DNA from: Gilliamella apicola | GTDB taxonomy: Bacteria > Pseudomonadota > Gammaproteobacteria > Enterobacterales > Orbaceae | DNA length: 64,000 nt | NCBI RefSeq assembly: GCF_003202655.1 | Contig: NZ_QGLR01000010.1 | Span: forward strand, 164,582-228,581 | Reading direction: 5' to 3' | In this document: piece by piece, positions 5,603-63,330 of the stretch | Layout: each line of letters opens with the position of its first letter | How positions within the stretch are numbered: the first letter of the stretch is position 1 | The notes under the pieces: model-generated | Databases searched by the model: none | Told to the model about the DNA's origin: nothing | What the model saw: only the letters and a program-made list of their open reading frames with translations | Program-made: the position numbers and the translations under genes

Positions 5603-5747
5603 ACAGACTCCTAATATTATCTTTATATTAATCGTCGTTATTTACGATTAATCATTTTAACTTGACGGTTTATATCTTTGACTTGCTTCACGACAAACTT
5701 TTTAATCACTTAATCTTTTTAGATTATTTGTAAGAAAGTCATTATTT

Positions 5748-48243: not shown

Positions 48244-48277
48244 AAGACTAAATTAAAGTTCCATCTTTAACATTAAC

Positions 48278-48298
48278 TAACCCGCATTTTGCGGGTTA
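48278..48298 (+). terminator. Intrinsic terminator after the TonB-dependent receptor gene
   Basis: AACCCGCA-tttt-GCGGGTT hairpin followed by a T-rich tract. Confidence 0.7.
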
Positions 48299-48463
48299 GT
48301 TATTCATACCTACTTCTGAACGCCTTTCCGATATTTAAATTATTGTTAAACATTAAGTTAAGTTATTGTTAAAATAATCCCATAAAATATTACATGTAAT
48401 ATTTACATGTAAGAAGAATGTGTTAATATAAGTCGTATAAAAACTTAAAAACACTAAATTTTT

Positions 48464-49105
48464 ATGAATAAAAGTAAACAAACAAAAAGTTCAGCATTTT
48501 ATCAACAACAATACCGGCAACGCTTAAGAGAACAAGGTTTGATAAAAAAAGAAGTTTGGATTTTACCGGAAAATAGTGATGAGTTACTTGAAATTGAAAA
48601 AGTATTTCGCCAACCAGCTATAGCGAATAAATCTTTTTTTTGCCATGTGAAGGAAAACAATGAAATGAAAAATAGAGATATCTGGAAAATTAATGATCTT
48701 TACCAAGAATTAAAGCAAACTGACTTAGTCAAACAAGGTTTCGCTAGCGTTGAAATGATCGATGGTATCGATGCCTGTTTACATATCATTATGCATGAAT
48801 ATGGTGATTTACCACTTTTTTTAAGTGTTTCAAATCAACAAATAATGGTTGAAGCGCTCCTTTGGCCAGTTTCACTAATTAAAAATCCTTCATCATTTAA
48901 TGAAGAGATTCTATGTGCTAGAAAACTATTTGCTTTATCAACTATAGCAATTGAAAAAACTGGCGATGGTGAAGTTAATTACATTATGTATGGTGCACTG
49001 AGTTCATCATCAACCTTAAACAATATTGTTTATGAGCTTGAAACTTTATCCGACAATGTGATCAAAGCGACTGAAGCTTATGAACATTTTTTCAATATTG
49101 AATAA
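48464..49105 (+). CDS. Hypothetical protein. The C-terminal about 140 aa are possibly YjfI/DUF2170-like. The N-terminal about 60 aa are basic and may be a separate extension or a wrong start.
   Basis: ORF with no RBS at the annotated start. An internal Met (NNEMKNRD) is an alternative start. It lies directly upstream of a PspA/IM30-family gene, as in the E. coli yjfI-yjfJ arrangement. The similarity assignment comes from memory and is not verified. Confidence 0.45.
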   Translation: MNKSKQTKSSAFYQQQYRQRLREQGLIKKEVWILPENSDELLEIEKVFRQPAIANKSFFCHVKENNEMKNRDIWKINDLYQELKQTDLVKQGFASVEMIDGIDACLHIIMHEYGDLPLFLSVSNQQIMVEALLWPVSLIKNPSSFNEEILCARKLFALSTIAIEKTGDGEVNYIMYGALSSSSTLNNIVYELETLSDNVIKATEAYEHFFNIE

Positions 49106-49135
49106 TTAAAGTAAAAATCCTAAAAGGAGTTAATT

Positions 49136-49828
49136 ATGGTTATCTTCAAAAAATTGGTAACAGCATTACGCGGTGGAATAAATGAAGTTGGTGAATCAAT
49201 CGTTGATTCTCAAGCATTACGCATATTAGACCAAGAAATCCGAGATGCTGATGAAGAATTAAAACAAGCAAAAGAATCATTGGCCAGTATCTTAGCAGAA
49301 CAAAAATTAGCTGAAAAACAAGTTGCATCAACACAAGCTCAAATAACTGAATATGAAGCATATGCAATTAAAGCACTGGAAAATAACAATGAAGAATTAG
49401 CTTTGGAAGTCGCTGAAAAACTTTCAGTCCTTGAAAATCAACATGCTAATAATAAAAAACAGGCTGATTATTTTACCGATAGTGTTAAAAATTTGCGACA
49501 AACTATCTCACAATCTGAAATTAATATTCGCAATTTAAAGCAACAAGTTGATATCGTTAAAGCGACGGAAAGTGTCCAAAAAGCCCAATCCGCTGTCGCA
49601 CATCGTTATGGTGGTTCAACAGCTAAATTACATACCGCCCTTGATTCATTAGACAGGATCAAAAAACGCCAAGAGAAAGCAGCTGCTACTTTTGAAGCAA
49701 AAAAAGAGTTAGCAGGAACTGAAAATGCTGATTCACTTGATAGCAAATTAGAAGCGGCAGGTATTAAAGTTGGTAATCAAAATGCGGCATCAATTTTAGC
49801 TAGATTAAAAGAAAAACAGACAAATTAA
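49136..49828 (+). CDS. PspA/IM30 (Vipp1/ESCRT-III-like) family protein, YjfJ-like
   Basis: 230-aa all-helical coiled-coil protein. The N-terminus has the PspA-like pattern (ALRGGINEVGESIVDSQALRILDQEIRDADEELKQAKESLA). Strong AAGGAG RBS. Confidence 0.75.
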   Translation: MVIFKKLVTALRGGINEVGESIVDSQALRILDQEIRDADEELKQAKESLASILAEQKLAEKQVASTQAQITEYEAYAIKALENNNEELALEVAEKLSVLENQHANNKKQADYFTDSVKNLRQTISQSEINIRNLKQQVDIVKATESVQKAQSAVAHRYGGSTAKLHTALDSLDRIKKRQEKAAATFEAKKELAGTENADSLDSKLEAAGIKVGNQNAASILARLKEKQTN

Positions 49829-49925
49829 ATTTTTCGCTTTTTGATATTTTTAAGTTAAAATATCAAAAAACAAGTATAAAATAATTAATTAGTTAAAATA
49901 TTGTTGTCGAGATGAAGGGAATATA

Positions 49926-50576
49926 ATGGAACTATTTTTGGGAATATTTTTTTCTTTTCCCGTGATTATCTTTAGTGCATTGTTAACAATCTGTATCTTA
50001 TATTGGTTTGTTACCGCATTAGGATTATTAACTATTGACTGTCTGGATTTTGATATTAGTGTCACTGATACATGTAGTGATATGCCACCGGCTGGATTCG
50101 GTGGTTTATTAATGAAATATGGCTTCAATGAAGTACCAATGACACTCATTATTACATTAATATCTTTAATTGGCTGGTCAATTTGTTATTTCGCATTTCG
50201 TCTATTAATCCTACCTTTGTATGATCTTACCTTATTTTATTATTTAGCTGGCATAGTACTGTTAATTATCGCATTCATCTTAGCTGTCTACTTGACTGCC
50301 ATTATTATTAAACCAATTCGTCCACTATTTAAAAAGATGTTGATTACCCATAATCATAAATCATTATTAGGACAAGTTATCGAAATTCGTTCAAGTACTG
50401 TAACCAAAACTAAGGGACAAGCTATCTGTGAAGATGGTGGTGCTGGTCTTATTTTGGAAGTAAGATGCGATGAATCTTATCAGTTTAATCGCGGTGATAA
50501 AGCTGTCATCCTCAACTATGATGAAAATACTAATTGTTATGAGATAATTAGCCTAAAAGATTTTAATGGACAATAA
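49926..50576 (+). CDS. NfeD-like membrane protein (YqiJ/DUF1449-like). It has multi-TM helices plus a C-terminal OB-fold beta domain.
   Basis: Four or five hydrophobic helices, then a soluble C-terminal domain (GQVIEIRSSTVTKTKGQAICEDGGAGLILEVRCDE...GDKAVILNYD) typical of NfeD partners of SPFH proteins. Lies immediately upstream of the flotillin gene. Confidence 0.65.
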   Translation: MELFLGIFFSFPVIIFSALLTICILYWFVTALGLLTIDCLDFDISVTDTCSDMPPAGFGGLLMKYGFNEVPMTLIITLISLIGWSICYFAFRLLILPLYDLTLFYYLAGIVLLIIAFILAVYLTAIIIKPIRPLFKKMLITHNHKSLLGQVIEIRSSTVTKTKGQAICEDGGAGLILEVRCDESYQFNRGDKAVILNYDENTNCYEIISLKDFNGQ

Positions 50577-50601
50577 AAGTTAATTTGGAGAAGGAAAAAA
50601 T

Positions 50602-52770
50602 ATGTTTACAAACAATGATACTATAATATACTTTTTGGTAATTGTTGGAAGTTTATTCTTATTAATTGTTGGATTCTTCGTATTATTTAAAGCGTTTTAT
50701 ATAAAAGTTCCGCAAGGTACCGCGCTTATCGTTAATGACATGACGTCAAAACCTAAAGTCCATTTTACTGGAGCATTAGTTTATCCAATCATCTACAAAA
50801 AAGAGTTCATGAAAATTTCGTTGATCACTTTTGATGTAGAACGAAGAGGTAAAGATGGTTTAATTTGTCAAGATAACCTTCGTGCTGATATTTGTGTCGC
50901 TTTCTATTTGCGGGTTAATGAAACCACCGAAGATGTTCTTAAAGTTGCCAAATCAATCGGTGTTGATCGCGCATCAGATCAGAAAGCAGTTAGTACATTA
51001 TTTAGTGCTAAATTTTCAGAAGCATTAAAAACCGTAGGAAAACAATTTGAACTGGCAAAACTATTTGAAGACCGCTTGAATTTCCGTGAACGTATCATTG
51101 ATGTAATTGGCAAAGACCTTAACGGTTATGCCCTTGAAGATGTTGCTATCGATTATTTAGAACAAACTCCAATTAAATCGCTTGATCCGGATAATATTTT
51201 TGATGCCGAAGGTATCAACAAAATTACAGCCATCACTGCTGTCCATAAAGATGAAACTAATAAACGTGAACGTGACTTAGAGCTGGCGCTGAAAAAGAAA
51301 GATACGGAAACTATCGAAGCCAAACTTGAACTTGAACGACAACAAGCTGACGCTGAAGCTCGTCAAAAACGTGAAATTGAAACAATTCGAGCCAGAGAAG
51401 CCGCTGAAACATTGAAAGTCCAAGAAGAAGAACGTTTAAAAGCGGAACAAGCTAGAATTCAAACCCAACAAGAAATTGAAGTAAGAGAGGAAAATCGCTT
51501 ACGTGAAGTTGAGGTTGCCCAAAACAATCGCCTAAGAGCAATCGCGATTGAAGAAGAACGGGTTACTCGTGCTCGTTCACTTGAAATCGTAGCTCGTGAA
51601 CGTGAAGTAGAGCTACAACGAATTGAAAAAGACAAAGTGCTAGAAGAAGAAAAAAAACAGATAGCCAATGTTATTCGTGAACGTATAGCGGTTGAGAAAA
51701 CAGTTGCCGTTGAAGAAGAACACATTAAAGAAGTACGTGAAGTTTCCAAAGCCGATCGAGAAAAACAGACTACGATTATTGTAGCAGAAGCTAGAGCAGA
51801 ACAAGAGCTGGTTAAACAAGTAAAACAAGCTGAAGCAGATGAACAATCATCAAAACATCGTGCGGTTGAAATTAGCATTATGGCACAAGCTGAATTAGAA
51901 GCCGCGGCAAAACAAGCCGAAGCGAAAAAACAACTGGCTCAAGGTATCGAAGCCGAAGAAGCAGCAATTGGTCTGGCTGAAGCTAAAGTTCGTAAAGCAG
52001 CAGCTGAAGCTGAAGAAAAAGAAGGCTTAGTCAAAGCTAATATTACCGCTGAAACCTTATTAGCAGAAGCCAAAGGTAATCAAGAAATAGGTTTAGCAGA
52101 AGCCAAAGTAATTGAAGCTAAAGCTATTGCTATTGAAAAAGAAGGTTTAGTTAAAGCCAACATTACCGCTGAAACATTATTAGCAGAAGCAAGAGGTAAT
52201 CAAGAAAAAGGTTTTGCAGAAGCCAAAGTAATTGAAGCCAAAGCCAATGCTATTGAAAAACAAGGTTTAACTGAAGCAAAAGTACTAGAAGAAAAACTTT
52301 CTGCTCAAGCTCGTGGTGAAGCATTAGTCATTCGTGAAAAATTAACTGCCGAAGCTAATGGGTTAGTTGAGAAGTTCCAAGCAATGGGTAACATGAATGA
52401 ACAATCACAAAATCATGAAGAGTTCCGCTTAGCACTTGAAAAAGGCTTTGAACAAGCTATGGCTGCGATTGCTGCTAACAAAGAGATCGCTAGAGAACAA
52501 GCTGATGTTCTTGCTGCGGCATTCAGTAAGGCAAATATTGAAATTGTCGGTGGTAATGATAACTTCTTCAATAGCTTCTCGAAAGCTATCAGCGTTGGTA
52601 AAGCGATTGAAGGAACTGTTAACCAAAGTCCAGTACTGCAATCAGCATTACAATCAGTACTAGCTCGCTTATCGGGAAACAAAAAAATCAATTTAAAAGA
52701 GACGTTGCAAAACACTGATTTAAAAGCGTTAGCACAACAATTTTTGTCATCCGATAATGAGAATGAGTAA
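50602..52770 (+). CDS. SPFH/band-7 flotillin-like protein (YqiK/FloT-like) with a long repetitive coiled-coil (EA-rich) C-terminal region
   Basis: N-terminal TM anchor, an SPFH domain (KVPQGTALIVNDMTSKP..., LITFDVERRGKDGLICQDNLRADICVAFYLRV) and about 450 aa of E/A/K/R-rich coiled coil. An in-frame 117-nt tandem duplication lies at 52021..52254. Confidence 0.85.
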   Translation: MFTNNDTIIYFLVIVGSLFLLIVGFFVLFKAFYIKVPQGTALIVNDMTSKPKVHFTGALVYPIIYKKEFMKISLITFDVERRGKDGLICQDNLRADICVAFYLRVNETTEDVLKVAKSIGVDRASDQKAVSTLFSAKFSEALKTVGKQFELAKLFEDRLNFRERIIDVIGKDLNGYALEDVAIDYLEQTPIKSLDPDNIFDAEGINKITAITAVHKDETNKRERDLELALKKKDTETIEAKLELERQQADAEARQKREIETIRAREAAETLKVQEEERLKAEQARIQTQQEIEVREENRLREVEVAQNNRLRAIAIEEERVTRARSLEIVAREREVELQRIEKDKVLEEEKKQIANVIRERIAVEKTVAVEEEHIKEVREVSKADREKQTTIIVAEARAEQELVKQVKQAEADEQSSKHRAVEISIMAQAELEAAAKQAEAKKQLAQGIEAEEAAIGLAEAKVRKAAAEAEEKEGLVKANITAETLLAEAKGNQEIGLAEAKVIEAKAIAIEKEGLVKANITAETLLAEARGNQEKGFAEAKVIEAKANAIEKQGLTEAKVLEEKLSAQARGEALVIREKLTAEANGLVEKFQAMGNMNEQSQNHEEFRLALEKGFEQAMAAIAANKEIAREQADVLAAAFSKANIEIVGGNDNFFNSFSKAISVGKAIEGTVNQSPVLQSALQSVLARLSGNKKINLKETLQNTDLKALAQQFLSSDNENE

Positions 52771-52811
52771 GTTACTATCTCAATAGTTATTTATTCAACG
52801 ACCAATCGGTT

Positions 52812-52838
52812 TTAGGTAGGATTAAATGCCTACCTAAA
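52812..52838 (+). promoter_or_regulatory. Stem-loop between the flotillin gene and the giant AAA+ gene. It may be a partial terminator or attenuator.
   Basis: TTAGGTAGG-attaaatgc-CCTACCTAA, a 9-bp perfect stem with no strong T-run. Confidence 0.4.
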
Positions 52839-52874
52839 CGTTAAGTATTTGAGTATCATTTCAACGAGTAAAAC

Positions 52875-55800
52875 ATGTCAGAAATCCAAGACCAGCAACA
52901 AACATCAATTGATAAAGCCGTCGCGGAAGGCGGAGCTTATGAAATTCTTCGTAAACGTTTAACCTCTTTAGGACAAGAACTTAATCAAAAGACGGAAGCC
53001 CTTAATCAACAAAGGCTATCTGAGTTTGGTAAAAGTGACATGTCCATCATTAGTCGTATTCGAATTAGAACTGAAAATAATTGTGTCGCACGGGATATTG
53101 TTCGTTTTGGTGACTGGCTATTATTTGGTTATAACGTCTATTTAGGATTAAAAAAAGGAACCAAAATAGAGGATGTATTTTCCCTTTATCAATTAGTAGA
53201 ACGTGATGGCTCTTATGAGGCTGATCCAGTTGATTTGTCTAATACATTCTTAAATATAGATCGATTTATCCAAGATTTTAATGAGCTGTATACTTATTAT
53301 AAAAATGCTCAACTACTCCAGCTTGTTGAACGTGATGGAAAACTACTCGCTAGTTTTCAAATTGGTGAGCGAATCAGTGATATTCGAGTTTTTAGATGGT
53401 CCATATCAAGTGACAAAAAGACCATTGAGTATATCGATAATCGGGGTGAACGAGACATCGCATTACCACCCGCATATGATTTTGAATGGATCGAAACAAC
53501 CCGTGAAAATATTGTTAATGGTCGATTTCCACATGTTAATGTTCTTGATACGGTATTTGTTGAAACCATCGGTGGCGACTTAACCATAAAATGTGAAAAT
53601 AACACCAATGATGGTTTAGGTATTTATCGAGAGGAAGTTGTTGATCAGAATCAATCAATTAATGACGCGAAAATAGAATATGCTAAAGTGGGATCATTAA
53701 TCTTATTAAAAGTCCTACCTTACCGAGAAGAAAATTGGCGTTATCTTGTATATAACACCTTAACTCAACAAGTCCATCGTATAGACTTTATTGGACAGGC
53801 ATGTATTCAACTTCCTGAAGATCATGGGATTATATTTCCTGGTGGATATTACTTACAAAATGGTGATTATAAAACTTTTGACCATTCGATGTCAGGCATG
53901 CGTTTTCGACGTATTCGCCGTTCACCAAATGGTGAGGATGTGTTATATATTTTCTATGATCCAACTAACGGTCGATTAGCATTATTTAATTATAATATGA
54001 TCGAACGAAAACTGGATAATCCGATATTAGGACATGGATATGCGGTTTTTGAAGATGGTCGAATGGTGGTCTTTGAAGGTGAAAATGATGAACCAACTCG
54101 GGTACATCCAATGCAGATTTGGCAAACACCTTTTTATAGTGATGAATTTGCCGCACAACAACCAACTAATAACAGCTTCCTTGGCAAAATAGGTAATGCC
54201 GAACTGGTTCGCGGCATTTCAGATCTTTACTTTATTTCGCGTGAAATCGATAACCAAACCGTCTCTTCACAGCTATATAGCAAACTTAGTGAGGATACCA
54301 AGAGACTTTTCGATAACTATTTTTGGCTCAATGACGATAAACATTTAGCCTTCTCCCCTATTCTGCGTAATATTACCCAAACGAGTGAACTGGTTATTGA
54401 TGAATATGAAAAAGTCGAAAGTATTCGTCGTCAATCAGAAAGCGCGATGCGTGAGGCTCTCTCTAATCAGCAAGATTTATTAAGCAAACTTTATCCGGAT
54501 AGTTGGCACGAAACCCAAGAATTTGTTGATGCATTAAATGCCATAAAAATGCAACTTGGCAGTTTAGTCACGTTAAGAACTTATCGTTACATCGATTTAA
54601 ATCAAATCGATAAAATGGAAAATGAACTAAAAACCAGACAGAGTGAGGTTTCATTAGCCACTGCTGAATTTTTAGGAAGTGATAAAGCGCTTGAACCATT
54701 CAATGTTAAAATTGACAATATCGAGCAGCAGCTTAGCAAAGCAGATACGGTAGCGAAATTACTCAATTCGGTAGAAATTACAGAAACCATGTCTGCTGAT
54801 TTGGATATGCTTTCACAATTAATCGCAACCCTAAAATTTGATGATGTTACTTTACAAACCAGAATCATCGAATCCATTGCCGAAGTCTATGCAAAACTCA
54901 ACCAAACAAAGGCTAAGATCCAACAAAAACGAAAAAATTTAGCCAATGTTGAAATGGTTGCACAATTTGGCGCCCAATTTAAATTATTTGGTCAAAGCAT
55001 TGCCAATGCCCTAAGTATGGCAACCACGCCAGAAAAATGTGATGATGAGCTATCTCGTCTTTTACTACAACTAGAAGAGCTTGAGAACCAATTTAGTGAA
55101 AGTGAGGAATTTCTTAATGATATTCTAACTAAACGTGAAGAAATCCTAGAATCATTCGAAACACATAAACAAGCGTTATTAGAGGATAGAACCAGACGGA
55201 CGGATGCCCTACTAACCGCTGCACAACGTATTTTAGACAGCATCCCAAGAAGAACCGCTAAATTTGCCGATCAAAATGAACTTAACGCTTTCTTTGTTGC
55301 TGACCCATTGGCGCAAAAAATCCGTGAAATTGTCGAAAAATTAAGAGCACTTTTTGATAATGTTAAAGCCGATGATATTGAGTCCAAATTTAAAAGTGCC
55401 CAAGATCAAGCCATACGATCCTTACGAGATAAATCGGAAATATTTGAATCTGGTGGAAATGTCATTAAACTAGGTCCACGGCATAAATTTAGTGTTAATA
55501 CCCAAGAGCTTGATTTAACCATAGTGCCTAAAGATCAGCATCTGTTTATGCAATTAACTGGGACTGAGTTTCAAGAAAAAATAATCAATGAGCAATTAGA
55601 AGCCTATAAGCCATTTTGGACGATTTCATTAGAATCAGAATCACCATCGGTATACCGTGCAGAGTATCTCGCCTATTCGATCATTACTGCTGCTTTACAA
55701 AAAGAGAGTGGATTAACTTATGTCGATTTAGCTAACCAGTTAAATCAACCTGAAACGCTTAATAAAACAGTGCGTGATTTTGCCACAATGCGCTATCGTG

Positions 55801-57809
55801 AAGGTTATGAAAAAGGGATTCATGACCACGATGCGGCTAAAATTCTAACAAAATTGATTCCTCTTGGCGAAGCGGCTGGTTTACTGCGCTATAACCCGTT
55901 AGCACGAAGCTTAGCCATTATTTATTGGCACTATAACCAAAAAAATGATATTGCCAAATTCTGGCCAGAACGTGCGAAAACTTGTATGGATATCCGAAAG
56001 TTATTCAGTCATGATGAAGGAATAATTAATCTTCAAGCGGAAATCTCTCAACAATTGACAGAATTTTTCAATGATAATCCAATTGCTCATCAGCCATTCC
56101 ATATTAAACAAGCGTCTGAATATCTTTGCTATGTATTAGCTCAAACGCCACAACAATTTATTTTCAGTAAATATAGCAAACAATTATTTGATGGATTAAA
56201 AAATCAACTTGAACAATCGCATATGTGGGGTGATTTCAATCAATCACAAAATAATCTTAATGAAAGATTAGCAGAACGTTGGAATCTAATCGAAAGTTGG
56301 CTTAAAGGGCTTTGCACATTACCTCTGTATAGCAAACTAAACAATTATATTGCTGAAGCTGTAATTTTAAATATCTTGGATAAAGCAGATAGCCTAACAA
56401 TCAGTGAGGTTGAACTTGAAGTATCGATTACCGATCTACTCGGTGAACACCCAACCATTAATCAAGGCGTGTTAAATATTAATTTAGATGACTTCTTTAG
56501 CCGTATGCGTTATCAATATAAAGTGGTTATCCCACAATTCCAACACTACCAAAGTTTACGTCAAGAAATATTAGTAAACCAACGTGAAGCACTCCATCTT
56601 GATGAATTCAAGGCTAAACCACTTAGCTCATTTGTTCGTAATAAACTGATAAATCAAGTTTATTTACCAATCATTGGCGACAATCTAGCCAAACAAATGG
56701 GTACCGTCGGAGAAACGCGTCGTAGTGATTTAATGGGATTATTACTCCTCATTTCACCACCTGGCTATGGTAAAACCACATTAATGGAATATGTTGCTAA
56801 TCGTTTAGGTTTAATTTTTATGAAAATTAACGGGCCGGCATTAGGTCACAGTGTATTGTCGTTTGATCCTGAACAAGCACCAAATGCAACCGCTCGTCAG
56901 GAGTTAGAAAAACTCAATTTAGCACTGGAAATGAGCAATAACGTTATGCTCTACATTGATGATATTCAACATACCAATCCAGAATTTTTACAGAAGTTTA
57001 TCTCATTATGTGATGGTTCTCGCCGTATCGAAGGGGTTTGGAAAGGTAAAACCAAAACCTATGATCTGAGAGGTAAAAAATTCTGTGTAATAATGGCTGG
57101 TAACCCTTACACAGAATCTGGCGAAGTATTCAAAATACCTGACATGCTAGCCAACCGAGCTGATATCTATAATTTAGGTGAAGTACTCGGCGGTATGGAT
57201 GAAGTATTTGCAACCAGTTATATTGAAAATTGCTTAACCTCTAATGCAACATTATCACCATTAGCCTTACGCGATTTAAATGATCTCTATCAGTTTATTG
57301 ACCATGCACAAGGCAAACCACTTAATACCAATGAGATGAGTTATAGCTATAGCCAAGCAGAAATTAGTGAAATTGTCGCCGTAATACGTCATTTATTAAA
57401 AATTCGTGAAGTGGTATTTAAAGTTAATCAGCAATATATTGCAAGCGCGGCTCAATCAGACAAATATCGAACTGAACCTGCGTTTAAACTGCAAGGAAGT
57501 TATCGAAATATGAATAAACTTGCTGAAAAAGTGTCATCCGTCATGAATGATGCAGAGCTCAATCAAATTATTGATGATCACTACCTCGGTGAGGCACAAC
57601 TACTCACCAATGGCGCAGAAGAGAACTTACTGAAACTGGCTGAAATTCGTGGAGTAATGACGGAAGATGAGACTAATCGCTGGCAACAAATAAAAAGTGA
57701 CTTTATGCGCAATAAAAGTTTAGGTGGCGATGATGCGAATACCGGCTCACAAATTGTCACCCAACTTGCCGATTTAGTGCAAAGTGTGCAAGCGTTGAAA
57801 TTACAGTAG
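52875..57809 (+). CDS. Very large (1644 aa) multidomain protein with a C-terminal AAA+ ATPase domain. Function unknown.
   Basis: One Walker A (LLLISPPGYGKTTL, about aa 1290), Walker B (VMLYIDDIQ), a sensor/arginine region (KFCVIMAGNPYTE...IPDMLANRADIYNL) and a central coiled-coil-rich region. No TM segments. The N-terminal about 450 aa are not recognisable. It begins 105 nt after the flotillin gene. Confidence 0.8.
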   Translation: MSEIQDQQQTSIDKAVAEGGAYEILRKRLTSLGQELNQKTEALNQQRLSEFGKSDMSIISRIRIRTENNCVARDIVRFGDWLLFGYNVYLGLKKGTKIEDVFSLYQLVERDGSYEADPVDLSNTFLNIDRFIQDFNELYTYYKNAQLLQLVERDGKLLASFQIGERISDIRVFRWSISSDKKTIEYIDNRGERDIALPPAYDFEWIETTRENIVNGRFPHVNVLDTVFVETIGGDLTIKCENNTNDGLGIYREEVVDQNQSINDAKIEYAKVGSLILLKVLPYREENWRYLVYNTLTQQVHRIDFIGQACIQLPEDHGIIFPGGYYLQNGDYKTFDHSMSGMRFRRIRRSPNGEDVLYIFYDPTNGRLALFNYNMIERKLDNPILGHGYAVFEDGRMVVFEGENDEPTRVHPMQIWQTPFYSDEFAAQQPTNNSFLGKIGNAELVRGISDLYFISREIDNQTVSSQLYSKLSEDTKRLFDNYFWLNDDKHLAFSPILRNITQTSELVIDEYEKVESIRRQSESAMREALSNQQDLLSKLYPDSWHETQEFVDALNAIKMQLGSLVTLRTYRYIDLNQIDKMENELKTRQSEVSLATAEFLGSDKALEPFNVKIDNIEQQLSKADTVAKLLNSVEITETMSADLDMLSQLIATLKFDDVTLQTRIIESIAEVYAKLNQTKAKIQQKRKNLANVEMVAQFGAQFKLFGQSIANALSMATTPEKCDDELSRLLLQLEELENQFSESEEFLNDILTKREEILESFETHKQALLEDRTRRTDALLTAAQRILDSIPRRTAKFADQNELNAFFVADPLAQKIREIVEKLRALFDNVKADDIESKFKSAQDQAIRSLRDKSEIFESGGNVIKLGPRHKFSVNTQELDLTIVPKDQHLFMQLTGTEFQEKIINEQLEAYKPFWTISLESESPSVYRAEYLAYSIITAALQKESGLTYVDLANQLNQPETLNKTVRDFATMRYREGYEKGIHDHDAAKILTKLIPLGEAAGLLRYNPLARSLAIIYWHYNQKNDIAKFWPERAKTCMDIRKLFSHDEGIINLQAEISQQLTEFFNDNPIAHQPFHIKQASEYLCYVLAQTPQQFIFSKYSKQLFDGLKNQLEQSHMWGDFNQSQNNLNERLAERWNLIESWLKGLCTLPLYSKLNNYIAEAVILNILDKADSLTISEVELEVSITDLLGEHPTINQGVLNINLDDFFSRMRYQYKVVIPQFQHYQSLRQEILVNQREALHLDEFKAKPLSSFVRNKLINQVYLPIIGDNLAKQMGTVGETRRSDLMGLLLLISPPGYGKTTLMEYVANRLGLIFMKINGPALGHSVLSFDPEQAPNATARQELEKLNLALEMSNNVMLYIDDIQHTNPEFLQKFISLCDGSRRIEGVWKGKTKTYDLRGKKFCVIMAGNPYTESGEVFKIPDMLANRADIYNLGEVLGGMDEVFATSYIENCLTSNATLSPLALRDLNDLYQFIDHAQGKPLNTNEMSYSYSQAEISEIVAVIRHLLKIREVVFKVNQQYIASAAQSDKYRTEPAFKLQGSYRNMNKLAEKVSSVMNDAELNQIIDDHYLGEAQLLTNGAEENLLKLAEIRGVMTEDETNRWQQIKSDFMRNKSLGGDDANTGSQIVTQLADLVQSVQALKLQ

Positions 57810-58136
57810 AGGGCGATTAATCAGTGTCTTTATATAGGTTATAAATATAATTTTAGGCTTGATTTTTAATGTTTTTACTCACTATGTTGAGGAAATTGCT
57901 AGAAGATAAGCCTCAAAACCTTTATTAAACCTCGACAGTTGATAAGAGTTGAGCACAAACACTACAGTTACAATATTGTGTAACAATTAAAAACAGTTAC
58001 ACAATTGTAAATTTAAGCCTTTGTGCTTACTACTATCATCCTAAATCGGTAGTCTATTTATCTAAATTTAATCAAAAATAGAACTGGTTTATTGAATAAA
58101 AAGTTAACATTTGAAATATTGGTTTGGAGAAAATAA

Positions 58137-58514
58137 TTAATGATTTTTAATCTTGTAGATATTAACTGTTCCTCGTTTTCTCATGATTATTTCTGCTACT
58201 AATACCATCTTTTGCAAAAGCGCCATATCAAATTCCTTTCCATTTTCAAAATAGATTCTAGCTAGACCTGATATGTAATTTTTTATCGTATCATCATTTT
58301 TTAAATTATTAATTTGAAGAGTATAATTGTTAACAAAATCATCAAATATATGCTTTTCATCATAATTTATTTTATCAATTTCTTTTTGAGACAGATTCTT
58401 TAATACATCTAATCCATATCCATCAGTGGCTAATGGCTGTTCATTCAAATATTTTCTTTGAAATTCTGCAAATCTCAGCAAAATTTCATTAATACTTTCT
58501 ATTAAATTATCCAT
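58137..58514 (-). CDS. Hypothetical small protein in the AT-rich island
   Basis: 125-aa ORF. A paralog-like remnant of its N-terminus (DNLVRVISNECL versus DNLIESINEIL) lies at about 58900..59040 on the same strand. Confidence 0.4.
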   Translation of the reverse strand: MDNLIESINEILLRFAEFQRKYLNEQPLATDGYGLDVLKNLSQKEIDKINYDEKHIFDDFVNNYTLQINNLKNDDTIKNYISGLARIYFENGKEFDMALLQKMVLVAEIIMRKRGTVNIYKIKNH

Positions 58515-59516
58515 AAATTTTGAAATTATCTTGATGCTATTAGATTACCTATATCTTTGCACTAATAATTAGTGCAATTGATATGATAAAAGTTTTCGAA
58601 CTACAGCAACTTTTAATAATATTCCTGTCTTATTCTTTGTTAACCGAGCTACTTTGCAACGGTTATTATAGTTTTTTACTACTTTTATTACCGTTATTCA
58701 ATGCTTAGTATTGGCAGATCTCGTACCAATTAGATCTATTCTTCTACCAAAGCATCCTAATTAAAATCTATCATTTTGAATTTTCGATAATAAAATAAAT
58801 ATTATTTTTATTACATAATTTTTCTAACAATCCTACTCACTCATTCCTGAGAATGAAATGGGTTCTTAGCAAAGCTGGATATTTAACGAAAAACTTCAAT
58901 TTTGCATTTCATCATCGCTATCAAGATATTCTTTAATGATACTTTTTATATTATTGAAATACGTGTAGTTGCTAAGACATTCATTAGATATTACTCTGAC
59001 TAAATTATCTAAATCCTTAAATTTTAGTACTTCTCTATCATTATAAATTTTTTATTTAGCGTTTATATAATGTTACTTTTTCTATTTATCAGTACTGATA
59101 TAACTTATATTTTATCAGTATTGATTATCATCATAGACATATACTTTTATAACCTTTACATCAAAAGTTGAAATCTTTTTATGATTATTATTAATATCAT
59201 CAATTATTGAATTCTCAATATTGTTGCAATTCCACCTAGTTAGTGCCTATTAAACGCTACCATTGTAATTTTAATTGCATGTCATTAAATTGAAACTCTA
59301 TTTTCCTAACTATACAGTCTATCCTAGTTTAGATTTAAATATCAAAGTATTGCTTTATATGCAAAAACACATTGTTTTGCCAAAGATAACCATAAATGTT
59401 ATTACTATAAATCTTATTACTACAAATATTTACACGTTTTTATTCCTGGCGATAATCTTGAACTTATCACTAAGCTGAACACCTAAATAGTTTAGTCAAT
59501 TTAATCAAGTTAGTTT

Positions 59517-59984
59517 TTATTTTATTATTTCAATTATTCCCAAAAATAAAATTACGTATCTACCAGAATTCAGTTCTGAAACCGCAAAACAAAATAATAA
59601 CCACCTGTTTTTTATACTTTTAAAAGTAAAACACGGCGAGAAATCCATATTTTTGACATAATAACATTTGAATTCATCAGGATTGTTATATTTAGGCGTT
59701 TTAGATTTCAATTTTAATTGGTCTACTATTTGATTATAAAACAATTTTTTATCTTCTATATTGATCAAATTTCTTCTTATCAAAATAGATTGGCTAAATA
59801 ATGAAAATGTTGAAAGGTAATTATTGGCAAAATCGGAAAAAATAATTTCAATTTGCTCATTATCTATATCATAGATAAAAGTCTGTTTATACAATAACTC
59901 TAATGTCCCATCAAATAATGTTTCATATTTGATATATTTTTTATTCTGTATTCTTTTTATCTGCATTGTATACGATTTAAACAC
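59517..59984 (-). CDS. Hypothetical small protein in the AT-rich island
   Basis: 155-aa ORF with no motifs recognised. GC content is very low. Confidence 0.35.
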   Translation of the reverse strand: MFKSYTMQIKRIQNKKYIKYETLFDGTLELLYKQTFIYDIDNEQIEIIFSDFANNYLSTFSLFSQSILIRRNLINIEDKKLFYNQIVDQLKLKSKTPKYNNPDEFKCYYVKNMDFSPCFTFKSIKNRWLLFCFAVSELNSGRYVILFLGIIEIIK

Positions 59985-60064
59985 CCATCTTCACTATGTA
60001 AATATCCGATTGTTAGTACATAAATCAACGAGAAAATTATGCCATTTTGTCTGCAATATAAGCC

Positions 60065-61857: not shown

Positions 61858-63330
61858 TTATTCTGTTAGTTGCTCTAATTTATTACAAGCCTTTCCAAGA
61901 TGCCCTTCACAAGCTAGTTGGTAATACTTTTTCGCTAAAGATTTATCTTGCTCAATACCATCACCTTTATCATACATACGCGCTAAACGATATTGTGCTT
62001 CAGCATCACCTTGTTCTGCTACTTTTGTATACCAATAGGCAGCTTTAACTTTATCCTGCGCTGTGCCTTCACCTTCATAATAGATAATCGCTAAATTATA
62101 TTCAGCGTCAGCATTACCTTGCTCTGCCGATTTTGTATACCAATAAAGCGCCTTTTGCTTATTTTGCGCTGTACCATCACCGAAATAATACATATTCCCT
62201 AAATTTTTTTGTGCAATGGGGGAACCTTGCTCCGCCGCTTTTGTAAACCAATATAACGCCTTTTGCTTATCTTGCTCTATGCCATCACCCTTATAATACA
62301 TATTCCCTAAATTGTTTTGCGCCGCAAACTGGCCTTGCTCCGCGGCTTTTGTATACCAATAAAACGCCTTTTGTTTATCCTGCTCTATGCCGTTTCCTTC
62401 ATCGTAAATAAGCGCTAAGTTATATTGGGATTCAGCATCATCTTGTTCTGCTGCTTTTGTATACCAATATACCGCCTTTTGCTTATCTTGCTCGGTACCA
62501 TCACCATGACTATACATAAACGCTAAATTTTTTTGTGCTTTGGCGTAACCTTGCTCTGCCGATTTCGTATACCAATAAAACGCCTTTTGTTTATCTTGTT
62601 CTGTGTCATCACCTTCATCATACATATACGCTAAATTAAATTGGACTTCAGCATTGCCTTGTTCTGCTGCTTTTGTATACCAATATACTGCTTTTTGTTT
62701 ATCTTGTTCTATACCATCGCCTTTACTATATATAACCGCTAAATTATTTTGTGCGCTAAATTCACCTTGTTCTGCTGCTTTTGTATACCAATATACTGCC
62801 TTTTGTTTATCTTGCTCTATGCCTTCACCGTCACTATACATAAGCGCTAAATTATATTGGCCGTGAGTATTACCTTGTTCTGCTGCTTTTGTATACCAAT
62901 AAAACGCTTTTTGTTTATCTTGCTCGGTGCCTTCACCGTAATAATACTTATTCGCTAAGATGTTTTGAGCGATGGAGTTACCTTGTTCCGCTACTTTTGT
63001 ATACCAATATAATGCCTTTTGTTTATCTTGTTCCAAGCCATCACCTTTATCATAAATGACCGCTAAATTATATTGGGCGTCAGCATTGCCTTGTTCTGCT
63101 GCTTTTGTATACCAATATACCGCCTTTTGCTTATTTAGTTCGATGTCATCACCTTCATCATACATATATGCTAAAAAAAATTGGGCTTCAGCATTACCTT
63201 GCTCAGCTTCTTCTTTACAGGAAGTAAAAGCTTCTTCACTACTTCCCATAAGCCAATATATTTTACATTGATTTGCATAAACAATAGAAGAAAGTAAGAG
63301 TGATAATATGATTAATAATCCTTTTTTCAT
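61858..63330 (-). CDS. Secreted Sel1-like repeat (SLR/HcpA-like) protein with about 12 tandem Sel1 repeats
   Basis: Signal peptide MKKGLLIILSLLLSSIVYA. Reiterated 36-aa units (AEQGNAEAQYNLAxMYxxGxGxEQDKQKAVYWYTKA). C-terminal Cys-containing tail. Confidence 0.85.
   Translation of the reverse strand: MKKGLLIILSLLLSSIVYANQCKIYWLMGSSEEAFTSCKEEAEQGNAEAQFFLAYMYDEGDDIELNKQKAVYWYTKAAEQGNADAQYNLAVIYDKGDGLEQDKQKALYWYTKVAEQGNSIAQNILANKYYYGEGTEQDKQKAFYWYTKAAEQGNTHGQYNLALMYSDGEGIEQDKQKAVYWYTKAAEQGEFSAQNNLAVIYSKGDGIEQDKQKAVYWYTKAAEQGNAEVQFNLAYMYDEGDDTEQDKQKAFYWYTKSAEQGYAKAQKNLAFMYSHGDGTEQDKQKAVYWYTKAAEQDDAESQYNLALIYDEGNGIEQDKQKAFYWYTKAAEQGQFAAQNNLGNMYYKGDGIEQDKQKALYWFTKAAEQGSPIAQKNLGNMYYFGDGTAQNKQKALYWYTKSAEQGNADAEYNLAIIYYEGEGTAQDKVKAAYWYTKVAEQGDAEAQYRLARMYDKGDGIEQDKSLAKKYYQLACEGHLGKACNKLEQLTE

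Follow-up and report, generated by a model that had tools for sequence, protein, structure and literature searches.

The window analysed here is a stretch of 64,000 nucleotides (nt) of contig NZ_QGLR01000010.1 from Gilliamella apicola, and the subject of this report is a cluster of five genes on its plus strand. Together with the upstream control region, the cluster (48382-57809) is, as judged from its sequence, the Orbaceae (Gilliamella-like) ortholog of the bacABCDE operon of Pseudomonas aeruginosa. The name bac stands for biofilm-associated cluster, and bacABCDEF lies in the PA3732-PA3727 region (PA14_16140-16200) of P. aeruginosa (PMC2587700, PMC10948618). The reading favoured here, and held to be fairly probable as a whole, is that of a bac ortholog with a membrane machine of BacC, BacD and BacE, an accessory pair BacA-BacB, and an operon that regulates itself. 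Gene calling placed the five open reading frames (ORFs) in one run, 48464-57809, as follows (aa, amino acids; TM, transmembrane).

48464-49105, plus strand: bacA ortholog, 213 aa, DUF2170/YjfI-like
49136-49828, plus strand: bacB ortholog, 230 aa, PspA/IM30 of the YjfJ type
49926-50576, plus strand: bacC ortholog, 216 aa, three TM segments and a C-terminal OB-fold, YqiJ/DUF1449-like (short NfeD-like)
50602-52770, plus strand: bacD ortholog, 722 aa, YqiK-type flotillin
52875-57809, plus strand: bacE ortholog, 1644 aa, DUF3686-family AAA+ ATPase
56712-57254, plus strand: AAA+ ATPase core of bacE, about residues 1280-1460

The intergenic gaps are 30, 97, 25 and 104 nt, which reproduces exactly the coordinates of a preliminary description of this DNA made from the letters alone. 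That description had also credited the PspA, NfeD and flotillin genes with strong ribosome-binding sites, and Shine-Dalgarno-like motifs are present at genes 2 (AAAGGAG), 3 (GAAGGG) and 4 (GGAGAAGGA); gene 5 has a weak one and gene 1 has none. Taken in order, the five products are 47, 60, 44, 68 and 61% identical to P. aeruginosa BacA-E, each over essentially its full length. The P. aeruginosa locus was reached via its homolog of the ATPase and encodes, in order, a DUF2170 protein (206 aa), PspA (231 aa), a protein of 213 aa, one of 688 aa, a DUF3686-AAA protein (1746 aa) and a PLDc_2 protein (230 aa). The BacE of the window is 86% identical to a G. apicola protein. The window and P. aeruginosa have in common the five-gene order and orientation, twin TTACATGT(A/G)A palindromes and an N-terminal BacA peptide. 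They differ in the spacing of the palindromes (13 nt in the window, 22 nt in P. aeruginosa), in a sigma-54-like element that the window lacks, in the host, a bee-gut member of the Orbaceae with 33% GC, and in bacF: the PLDc_2 hydrolase BacF has no tblastn match anywhere in the 64-kb window.

In P. aeruginosa, pA3732-pA3729 were defined as bacA-D by Mace et al. (2008), and the PspA-like PA3731, which is induced by osmotic shock, is required for biofilm formation, swarming, rhamnolipid production and virulence (PMC2587700). Wallart et al. (2024) showed by reverse-transcription PCR over every junction that bacA-F form one operon; BacB-F were up 6-13-fold in a bacA::Tn mutant, and BacA was found to have a CesT-like chaperone fold (PMC10948618). 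The comparative genomics of Ravi et al. (2024) described an architecture of a CesT/Tir-like chaperone, PspA, a TM-band-7-flotillin, a YqiJ/YuaF-like protein with three TM segments and a novel AAA+ ATPase with a beta-propeller, sometimes including a phospholipase D (PLD) family member, and reported a wider spread for shortened operons that lack PspA (PMC11237479). The early impression that the combination matches no named system was mistaken, the cluster being the bac operon (PMC2587700, PMC10948618) with an architecture found in PMC11237479. The cluster is no different in kind from the operon class of Ravi et al.; the architecture is already published, and the window adds one more ortholog, in a bee-gut symbiont. 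The proposal that the five genes are one conserved functional module is borne out by the collinear bacA-E orthologs and by co-transcription and co-regulation in P. aeruginosa (PMC10948618).

Related loci were collected by a pattern scan with one genome per species, in which at least 582 matches were confirmed as ATPase relatives; the best 80 were taken, a sample biased towards relatives of the query (Proteobacteria). ORFs were called in the 80 loci and in the P. aeruginosa locus, and six families were searched for with iteratively built hidden Markov models. Architectures were counted in the 71 loci whose upstream flank reaches at least 4.5 kb; four distant members were added to these, giving 75. 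The 71 loci are distributed as follows.

C-D-E: 28 loci
A-B-C-D-E: 22 loci
A-B-C-D-E-F: 14 loci
divergent A-B beside C-D-E: 4 loci
C-D-E-F: 3 loci

Co-oriented C-D-E is present in all 71, and the gap between D and E has a median of 103 nt. Of these loci 40 have A-B and only 17 have F, which makes bacF accessory. The four distant ATPase members (28-34% identity; two Bacteroidota and one Lachnospiraceae among them) all have C-D-E as well. The ATPase gene stands directly behind the YqiJ-like and flotillin genes in 75/75 loci, and the chaperone-PspA dyad adjoins in 42/75; the constant partner of the ATPase is therefore the flotillin scaffold, not PspA. Among the 33 loci with PspA-free C-D-E, 31 have no PspA within 10 kb, and one distant locus has PspA 6 kb downstream. 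Limnobaculum, Xenorhabdus and Providencia, the closest non-Orbaceae relatives of the query ATPase among the loci sampled, have C-D-E only. The prevalence of abbreviated flotillin-YqiJ-ATPase operons reported by Ravi et al. is reproduced in the present loci. The preliminary description had envisaged that the ATPase gene might turn up elsewhere without PspA or flotillin neighbours; the flotillin/YqiJ pair always accompanies it, whereas PspA is often missing. Incidental adjacency of the cluster genes is ruled out by the conserved synteny across related loci.

The association with PspA is genuine and has a recurrent character, but PspA is an accessory part. The recurrence shows in two Bacteroidota loci (L085 1857-11899 and L087 1890-11851), which carry, at the same position, PspA together with a CesT family different from that of BacA (PF22550, 132 aa, no N-terminal extension). 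Several variations on the common layout were seen. In four loci (L052, L053, L065 and L071; three Marinobacter, one Cellvibrionaceae) a dyad of short BacA and PspA is divergent from C-D-E. Insertions of 3.4 kb and 2.0 kb split the flotillin gene from the ATPase gene in L022 (6564-9956) and L031 (7959-9992). An extra ORF of about 115 aa separates the PspA gene from bacC in 12/81 loci, for example L042 (6743-7093), and is absent from the window. No further neighbouring gene recurs in more than 12/81 loci.

The gene labels of the preliminary description are correct, including those of genes 3 and 4, which lie beyond standard domain scans and were placed by profile-profile comparison with YqiJ and by BLASTP with YqiK, respectively. 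Gene 3 has no Pfam domain, even at E<=10, nor do 72 orthologs; NCBIfam is likewise empty, and BLASTP gives no significant match to YqiJ. The profile of its family (72 orthologs) aligns with that of YqiJ in hhalign at 97.4% probability (E 1e-11); the 130 aligned columns span both the TM region and the OB-fold. The BacC translation has three hydrophobic segments and is 44% identical to PA3730, and its gene lies directly 5' of the flotillin gene. Gene 4 also has no Pfam domain at E<=10, with the Band_7 and Flotillin models and NCBIfam blank, and matches E. coli YqiK in BLASTP with E 7e-46 (28% identity over 483 aa) in the order N-terminal TM, SPFH, coiled coil. BacD, 68% identical to PA3729, has a single N-terminal TM segment and an SPFH region, then a long coiled coil that contains E/A-rich repeats, and last a C-terminal domain. 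Read off the translation, residues ~469-553 (52006-52260) contain two near-identical E/A-rich repeats of ~41 aa (...LVKANITAETLLAEA(K/R)GNQE...AEAKVIEAKA.AIEK...), followed by a partial third. The Pfam Band_7, Flotillin, NfeD and YqiJ models miss the whole BacC/BacD lineage at E<=10 (the window and 72-73 orthologs), so automated annotation leaves both proteins hypothetical. In sequence searches of the PDB, genes 3, 4 and 5 have no solved relatives beyond P-loop matches.

Gene 1 is a DUF2170 protein (Pfam, E 4e-45, residues 74-210), and over this domain it shares 37% identity with E. coli YjfI. The whole protein scores 283.6 bits against the NCBIfam model 'biofilm formation regulator BacA', just under the 300-bit cut-off. 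It consists of a basic N-terminal module of about 50 aa (RQRLREQGLIKKEVWILPE) fused to the DUF2170/YjfI domain with the CesT-like chaperone fold; E. coli YjfI lacks this module. Gene 2 is a PspA_IM30 protein (PF04012, E 2e-51), in which residues 3-229 match 2-219 of the 220 positions of the profile; its identity is 34% with E. coli YjfJ and 60% with PA3731. Against TIGR02977, the equivalog model of PspA, it scores 24 bits with a cut-off of 243, and no domains of the classical Psp partners PspB, PspC and PspF are found in the cluster (Pfam, NCBIfam). The comparison made earlier with E. coli yjfIJ and yqiJK is upheld by alignment, and the yqiJK locus of E. coli K-12 has no ATPase. In E. coli yjfI-yjfJ and yqiJ-yqiK are unlinked pairs without an ATPase, the former in a polyamine-type yjfIJKLMC context, whereas the window joins both types and adds the ATPase. 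The PspA/PspF system of E. coli is like the window in that a protein of the ESCRT-III superfamily is encoded with an AAA+ ATPase; unlike PspF, BacE has no sigma-54 activator or helix-turn-helix domains (Pfam).

Gene 5 contains DUF3686 (E 2e-203), DUF7902 and an AAA domain (Pfam). The family is compact, its N-terminal 700 aa falling into 890 clusters at 50% identity, and it evolves slowly. The cluster of P. aeruginosa BacE has 3222 member sequences in the protein database, and the window protein is 61% identical to that ortholog. The ATPase motifs are intact: across 21 diverse members, Walker A (SPPGYGKTT), Walker B (YIDD), sensor-1 N1410 and the arginine after it, R1428, do not vary. AlphaFold models were made of residues 1-700 and 1091-1644. 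The first (pLDDT, the model's own confidence measure, 89) has a helix at 2-51, a beta-propeller at 57-417 and helical bundles at 423-699, the last with generic structural matches only; the second (pLDDT 91.5) has the AAA+ core followed by a helical C-terminus. In the numbering of the C-terminal model, DSSP assigns the Walker B strand to 267-272 and the sensor-1 strand to 313-319; the strands that come between them, 294-299 and 302-307, make up a beta-hairpin. The best solved matches to the motor in Foldseek are RuvB, the MoxR-type CbbQ and NorQ, and MCM (E 2e-7 to 1e-5); sequence matches to p97 are confined to the P-loop region. As modelled, the motor belongs to the pre-sensor-1-hairpin group (RuvB/MoxR/MCM-like), not to the classical Vps4/p97 clade. 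A literature search on the family name DUF3686 gave no paper.

These results bear on the analogy with ESCRT-III and Vps4 drawn in the preliminary description, according to which BacE would disassemble or remodel polymers of the PspA protein BacB, with flotillin and NfeD as a mere membrane platform. As with ESCRT-III/Vps4 of archaea and eukaryotes, an ESCRT-III-superfamily protein, the full-length PspA/IM30 protein BacB, is encoded with an AAA+ ATPase, BacE, whose AAA+ identity follows from its motifs and model. PspA adjoins in 42/75 loci, including the two Bacteroidota with their different CesT-type family, which indicates that the link was retained or gained more than once. Remodelling at the expense of ATP is suggested by Ravi et al. 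where PspA is associated with AAA+ proteins (PMC11237479), and according to a 2025 review there is no known Vps4-like ATPase for bacterial PspA, leaving that niche open (PMC7619361). However, C-D-E occurs without adjoining PspA in 33/75 loci, PspA thus being a facultative neighbour, and the ATPase is never found without flotillin. BacE also has no MIT domain by Pfam or structural search, its N-terminus being propeller and helical bundles. The Vps4-like role is held to be unlikely, and action of BacE on PspA polymers less likely than action at the BacC/BacD scaffold.

The favoured reading starts from this scaffold. The evolutionarily fixed set BacC-BacD-BacE would work as a three-protein membrane machine. 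By likeness to other SPFH proteins BacD is expected to assemble into an oligomeric cage or cup at the inner membrane, on its cytoplasmic side, and the giant AAA+ ATPase BacE would act from the cytoplasm on or inside the scaffold, with its beta-propeller, its long arms of helices and a motor like those of RuvB and MoxR. Hydrolysis of ATP by BacE may drive assembly, remodelling or extraction of proteins at the BacC/BacD flotillin scaffold, and the scaffold may recruit or position BacB polymers at damaged or specialised membrane regions. BacB as the PspA-type, ESCRT-III-like effector and BacA as its CesT-like partner would make up an accessory, stress-responsive module. Precedents for SPFH cages are HflK/C around the AAA+ protease FtsH, and QmcA-YbbJ; with an SPFH scaffold and an NfeD-type partner or AAA+ machine at the inner membrane, these are the best functional analogy for C-D-E. 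BacE differs from FtsH in having no protease domain and no TM segment and in its size of about 1650 aa with propeller and helical arms. In Bacillus subtilis an SPFH protein, YdjI, links PspA to the membrane (PMC8581546).

The operon appears as a discrete unit in a comparison with Gilliamella sp. Choc5-1 (L004 5563-14941). DNA homology to that strain covers 48382-57803 of the window at 76-78% identity, between flanks that are unrelated, which places the operon at different chromosomal sites in related Orbaceae. The homology begins 8 nt before the putative operator and ends at the bacE stop, so the operator travels with the genes. The control region holds the following elements.

48390-48399 and 48403-48412, no strand assigned: twin perfect palindromes TTACATGTAA, putative operator, 13 nt apart
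48402-48429, plus strand: sigma-70-like promoter TTTACA-16 nt-TAATAT with extended -10 TG, from a consensus scan only

The sequence TTACATGTAA has two exact copies in the 64-kb window, both at 48390-48412, and the second palindrome overlaps the -35 hexamer of the promoter. Positions 48382-57809 would be a single transcription unit read from a sigma-70-type promoter overlapped by the operator, with a predicted start of transcription about 7 nt after 48429, and co-transcription is compatible with the short gaps, the one promoter-like site and the absence of an internal T-run terminator. A targeted check of the 290 nt upstream of gene 1 gave no sigma-54 -24/-12 element (GG-N10-GC).

The same type of pair, TTACATGT(A/G)A, lies upstream of bacA in P. 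aeruginosa, other Pseudomonas, Cellvibrionaceae, Comamonas, Diaphorobacter (Comamonadaceae) and others. By locus, L001 has the twin palindromes at ~5670-5700, and about 27 more loci across Gamma- and Betaproteobacteria have them ahead of bacA. Counted from the codon for the first Arg in RLREQGLVKKEVWI, the core of the proximal palindrome keeps a fixed place at -70 to -72 nt; this almost invariant peptide belongs to the N-terminal extension (~50 aa) of BacA. Pairs of ACATGT number 27 in 1.88 Mb of loci, nearly all at bacA sites. Loci with the long type of BacA have the ACATGT-core pair in 24/28 cases, the other four being Lysobacteraceae with a variant at the same position; loci with a short BacA have it in 0/12. 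The palindromes thus track the N-terminal BacA peptide, which suggests BacA as repressor of its own operon.

In the four Lysobacteraceae (L018, L019, L023 and L029) the region ~50-110 nt upstream of bacA reads TTTCATGTAA...TTACATGAAA in three and holds a more degenerate pair in L023. In the same four the N-terminal helix of BacA is changed from SAHYQR..R.RLR to ST(L/E)(H/Y).R..R.RMR. The joint change of operator and helix looks like co-variation of protein and DNA. Matches of the N-terminus to PF11455 (MazE-like antitoxin) were obtained for 15/23 BacA proteins, with a best E of 9.5e-4 and all below the 22-bit cut-off; a profile search of the PDB with the N-terminus gave nothing. Going only by the co-occurrence of the module with the palindromes, BacA probably combines an autorepressor and a chaperone-like domain in one fused protein. 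Palindromes, DNA binding and a repressor go unmentioned in Wallart et al. (PMC10948618), as do twin palindromes and BacA autorepression in both bac papers (PMC2587700, PMC10948618), and the link between the operator and the BacA N-terminus may be new.

The N-terminal module also bears on the published start of PA3732. The protein was given as 16 kDa (Mace et al. 2008, PMC2587700), while the conserved ORF (L001 5722-6342) has 206 aa, ~23 kDa. The published start is probably the internal Met60, by which the conserved module is omitted, and the crystallised BacA construct may likewise be truncated. In the Bacteroidota loci a divergent gene for an XRE-type helix-turn-helix protein lies directly upstream, and the one in the Flavobacterium locus has a faint S24 peptidase signal. 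Bacteroidota may have the regulator as a protein of its own, and Proteobacteria may have it fused to the chaperone.

In the favoured reading, BacA would bind BacB through its chaperone-like domain and repress the operon at the palindromes through its MazE-like module, and expression would track the availability of free BacB. The elements can also be joined in a partner-switch model, which is put forward tentatively and with the odds against it. BacA would there be an autorepressor-chaperone with a MazE/ribbon-helix-helix-like module on the palindromes and a CesT-like domain on BacB, and BacE would be the energy source of a flotillin/ESCRT-III membrane-repair assembly.

A role in phage or toxin defence, which the preliminary description had thought conceivable, would have the ATPase sense infection and the membrane proteins execute the response, in the manner of abortive infection. 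The patchy distribution across phyla, the different chromosomal sites in the two related Orbaceae, the PLD-family hydrolase that is sometimes attached and the XRE/S24-like regulator beside the two Bacteroidota versions are what such a system might display. However, PADLOC-DB 2.0 gave no significant match (marginal P-loop and coiled-coil matches, E 6e-4 to 1e-2). The conservation is unusually high for defence genes, with BacD and BacE 61-68% identical between Orbaceae and Pseudomonas and the 3222 sequences in the P. aeruginosa BacE cluster. The published phenotypes are biofilm, swarming, rhamnolipid, osmotic shock and virulence (PMC2587700, PMC10948618). Defence is considered very improbable. 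Scarcely credible is a DNA-repair ATPase with unrelated neighbours: the NCBI/Pfam names 'DNA repair ATPase' and 'ATPase involved in DNA repair', of which the former probably reflects the similarity to RuvB, and the rank of RuvB as best structural match of the motor speak for it, but BacE is strictly adjacent to two membrane-protein genes in 75/75 loci with no recurring repair gene nearby, has no nucleic-acid-binding domain detected by Pfam or structural search, belongs to a family on which no paper was found under its name, and the reading was rejected for want of supporting genomic context.

Several points weigh against the bac-type membrane machine with autoregulation. A P. aeruginosa mutant in paFlo3 (bacD; PA3729 is the PaFlo3 of that source) lost only ~20% of its biofilm (PMC13086221), which makes the core's phenotypes mild. 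For bac in P. aeruginosa a sigma-54 promoter has been proposed (PMC2587700, PMC10948618), an element that the window lacks. The window BacA scores 14.6 bits against PF11455, below the 22-bit cut-off. The rise of BacB-F with bacA::Tn might come from polarity of the MAR2xT7 cassette or read-out from it, and not from loss of a repressor. The hairpins that follow bacB and bacD might mean differential or partly separate expression, and the loci surveyed lean, as stated, towards Proteobacteria. Gene content, orthology, synteny, domain folds, intact ATPase motifs and the joint occurrence of operator and BacA N-terminal domain are established here, whereas all contacts between proteins and with DNA, what the ATPase acts on and what triggers the system physiologically are inferred.

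The hairpins in and around the cluster are listed here.

48274-48302, plus strand: strong GC-rich hairpin after the TonB-receptor gene, likely terminator, -22.2 kcal/mol, z -6.4
49839-49868, plus strand: AT-rich hairpin directly 3' of the PspA gene, centroid stem of 12 bp, z only -1.6
52812-52837, plus strand: 9-bp hairpin in the flotillin-ATPase spacer, without a T-run; spacer -22.5 kcal/mol, z -3.5

None of 200 shuffles folded as well as the first hairpin, which likely insulates the cluster from upstream transcription. The second, weak as its z score is, is a possible partial attenuator or element of mRNA stability. The spacer that contains the third was also matched in stability by 0/200 shuffles, and this hairpin is a possible processing or attenuation element. 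The upstream flank encodes a periplasmic binding protein and a TonB-dependent receptor, and the next gene 3' of the cluster is convergent (58137-58514, minus strand). Just downstream, 58001-60000 is very AT-rich (GC 0.25) with small orphan ORFs on the minus strand, and 61858-63330 encodes a protein of 490 aa with 12 Sel1 repeats.

The present analysis adds to the operon class of Ravi et al. the counts of architectures, the structure models, the assignment of the AAA+ clade and the link between operator and N-terminal domain. The cluster connects PspA/ESCRT-III proteins, SPFH/flotillin proteins with NfeD, and AAA+ motors, which are widely studied and poorly linked families. With the flotillin/YqiJ pair as the obligate partner of the ATPase, biochemistry should start at BacC-D-E, not at PspA. 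The operator together with the overlooked N-terminal domain of BacA gives a directly testable model of control. If the partner-switch model is true, the published PA3732 start would be too short and sigma-54 control would be wrong or secondary. Transcription of the operon would then be set by free versus membrane-engaged BacB, a circuit analogous to PspA-PspF and made from unrelated parts.

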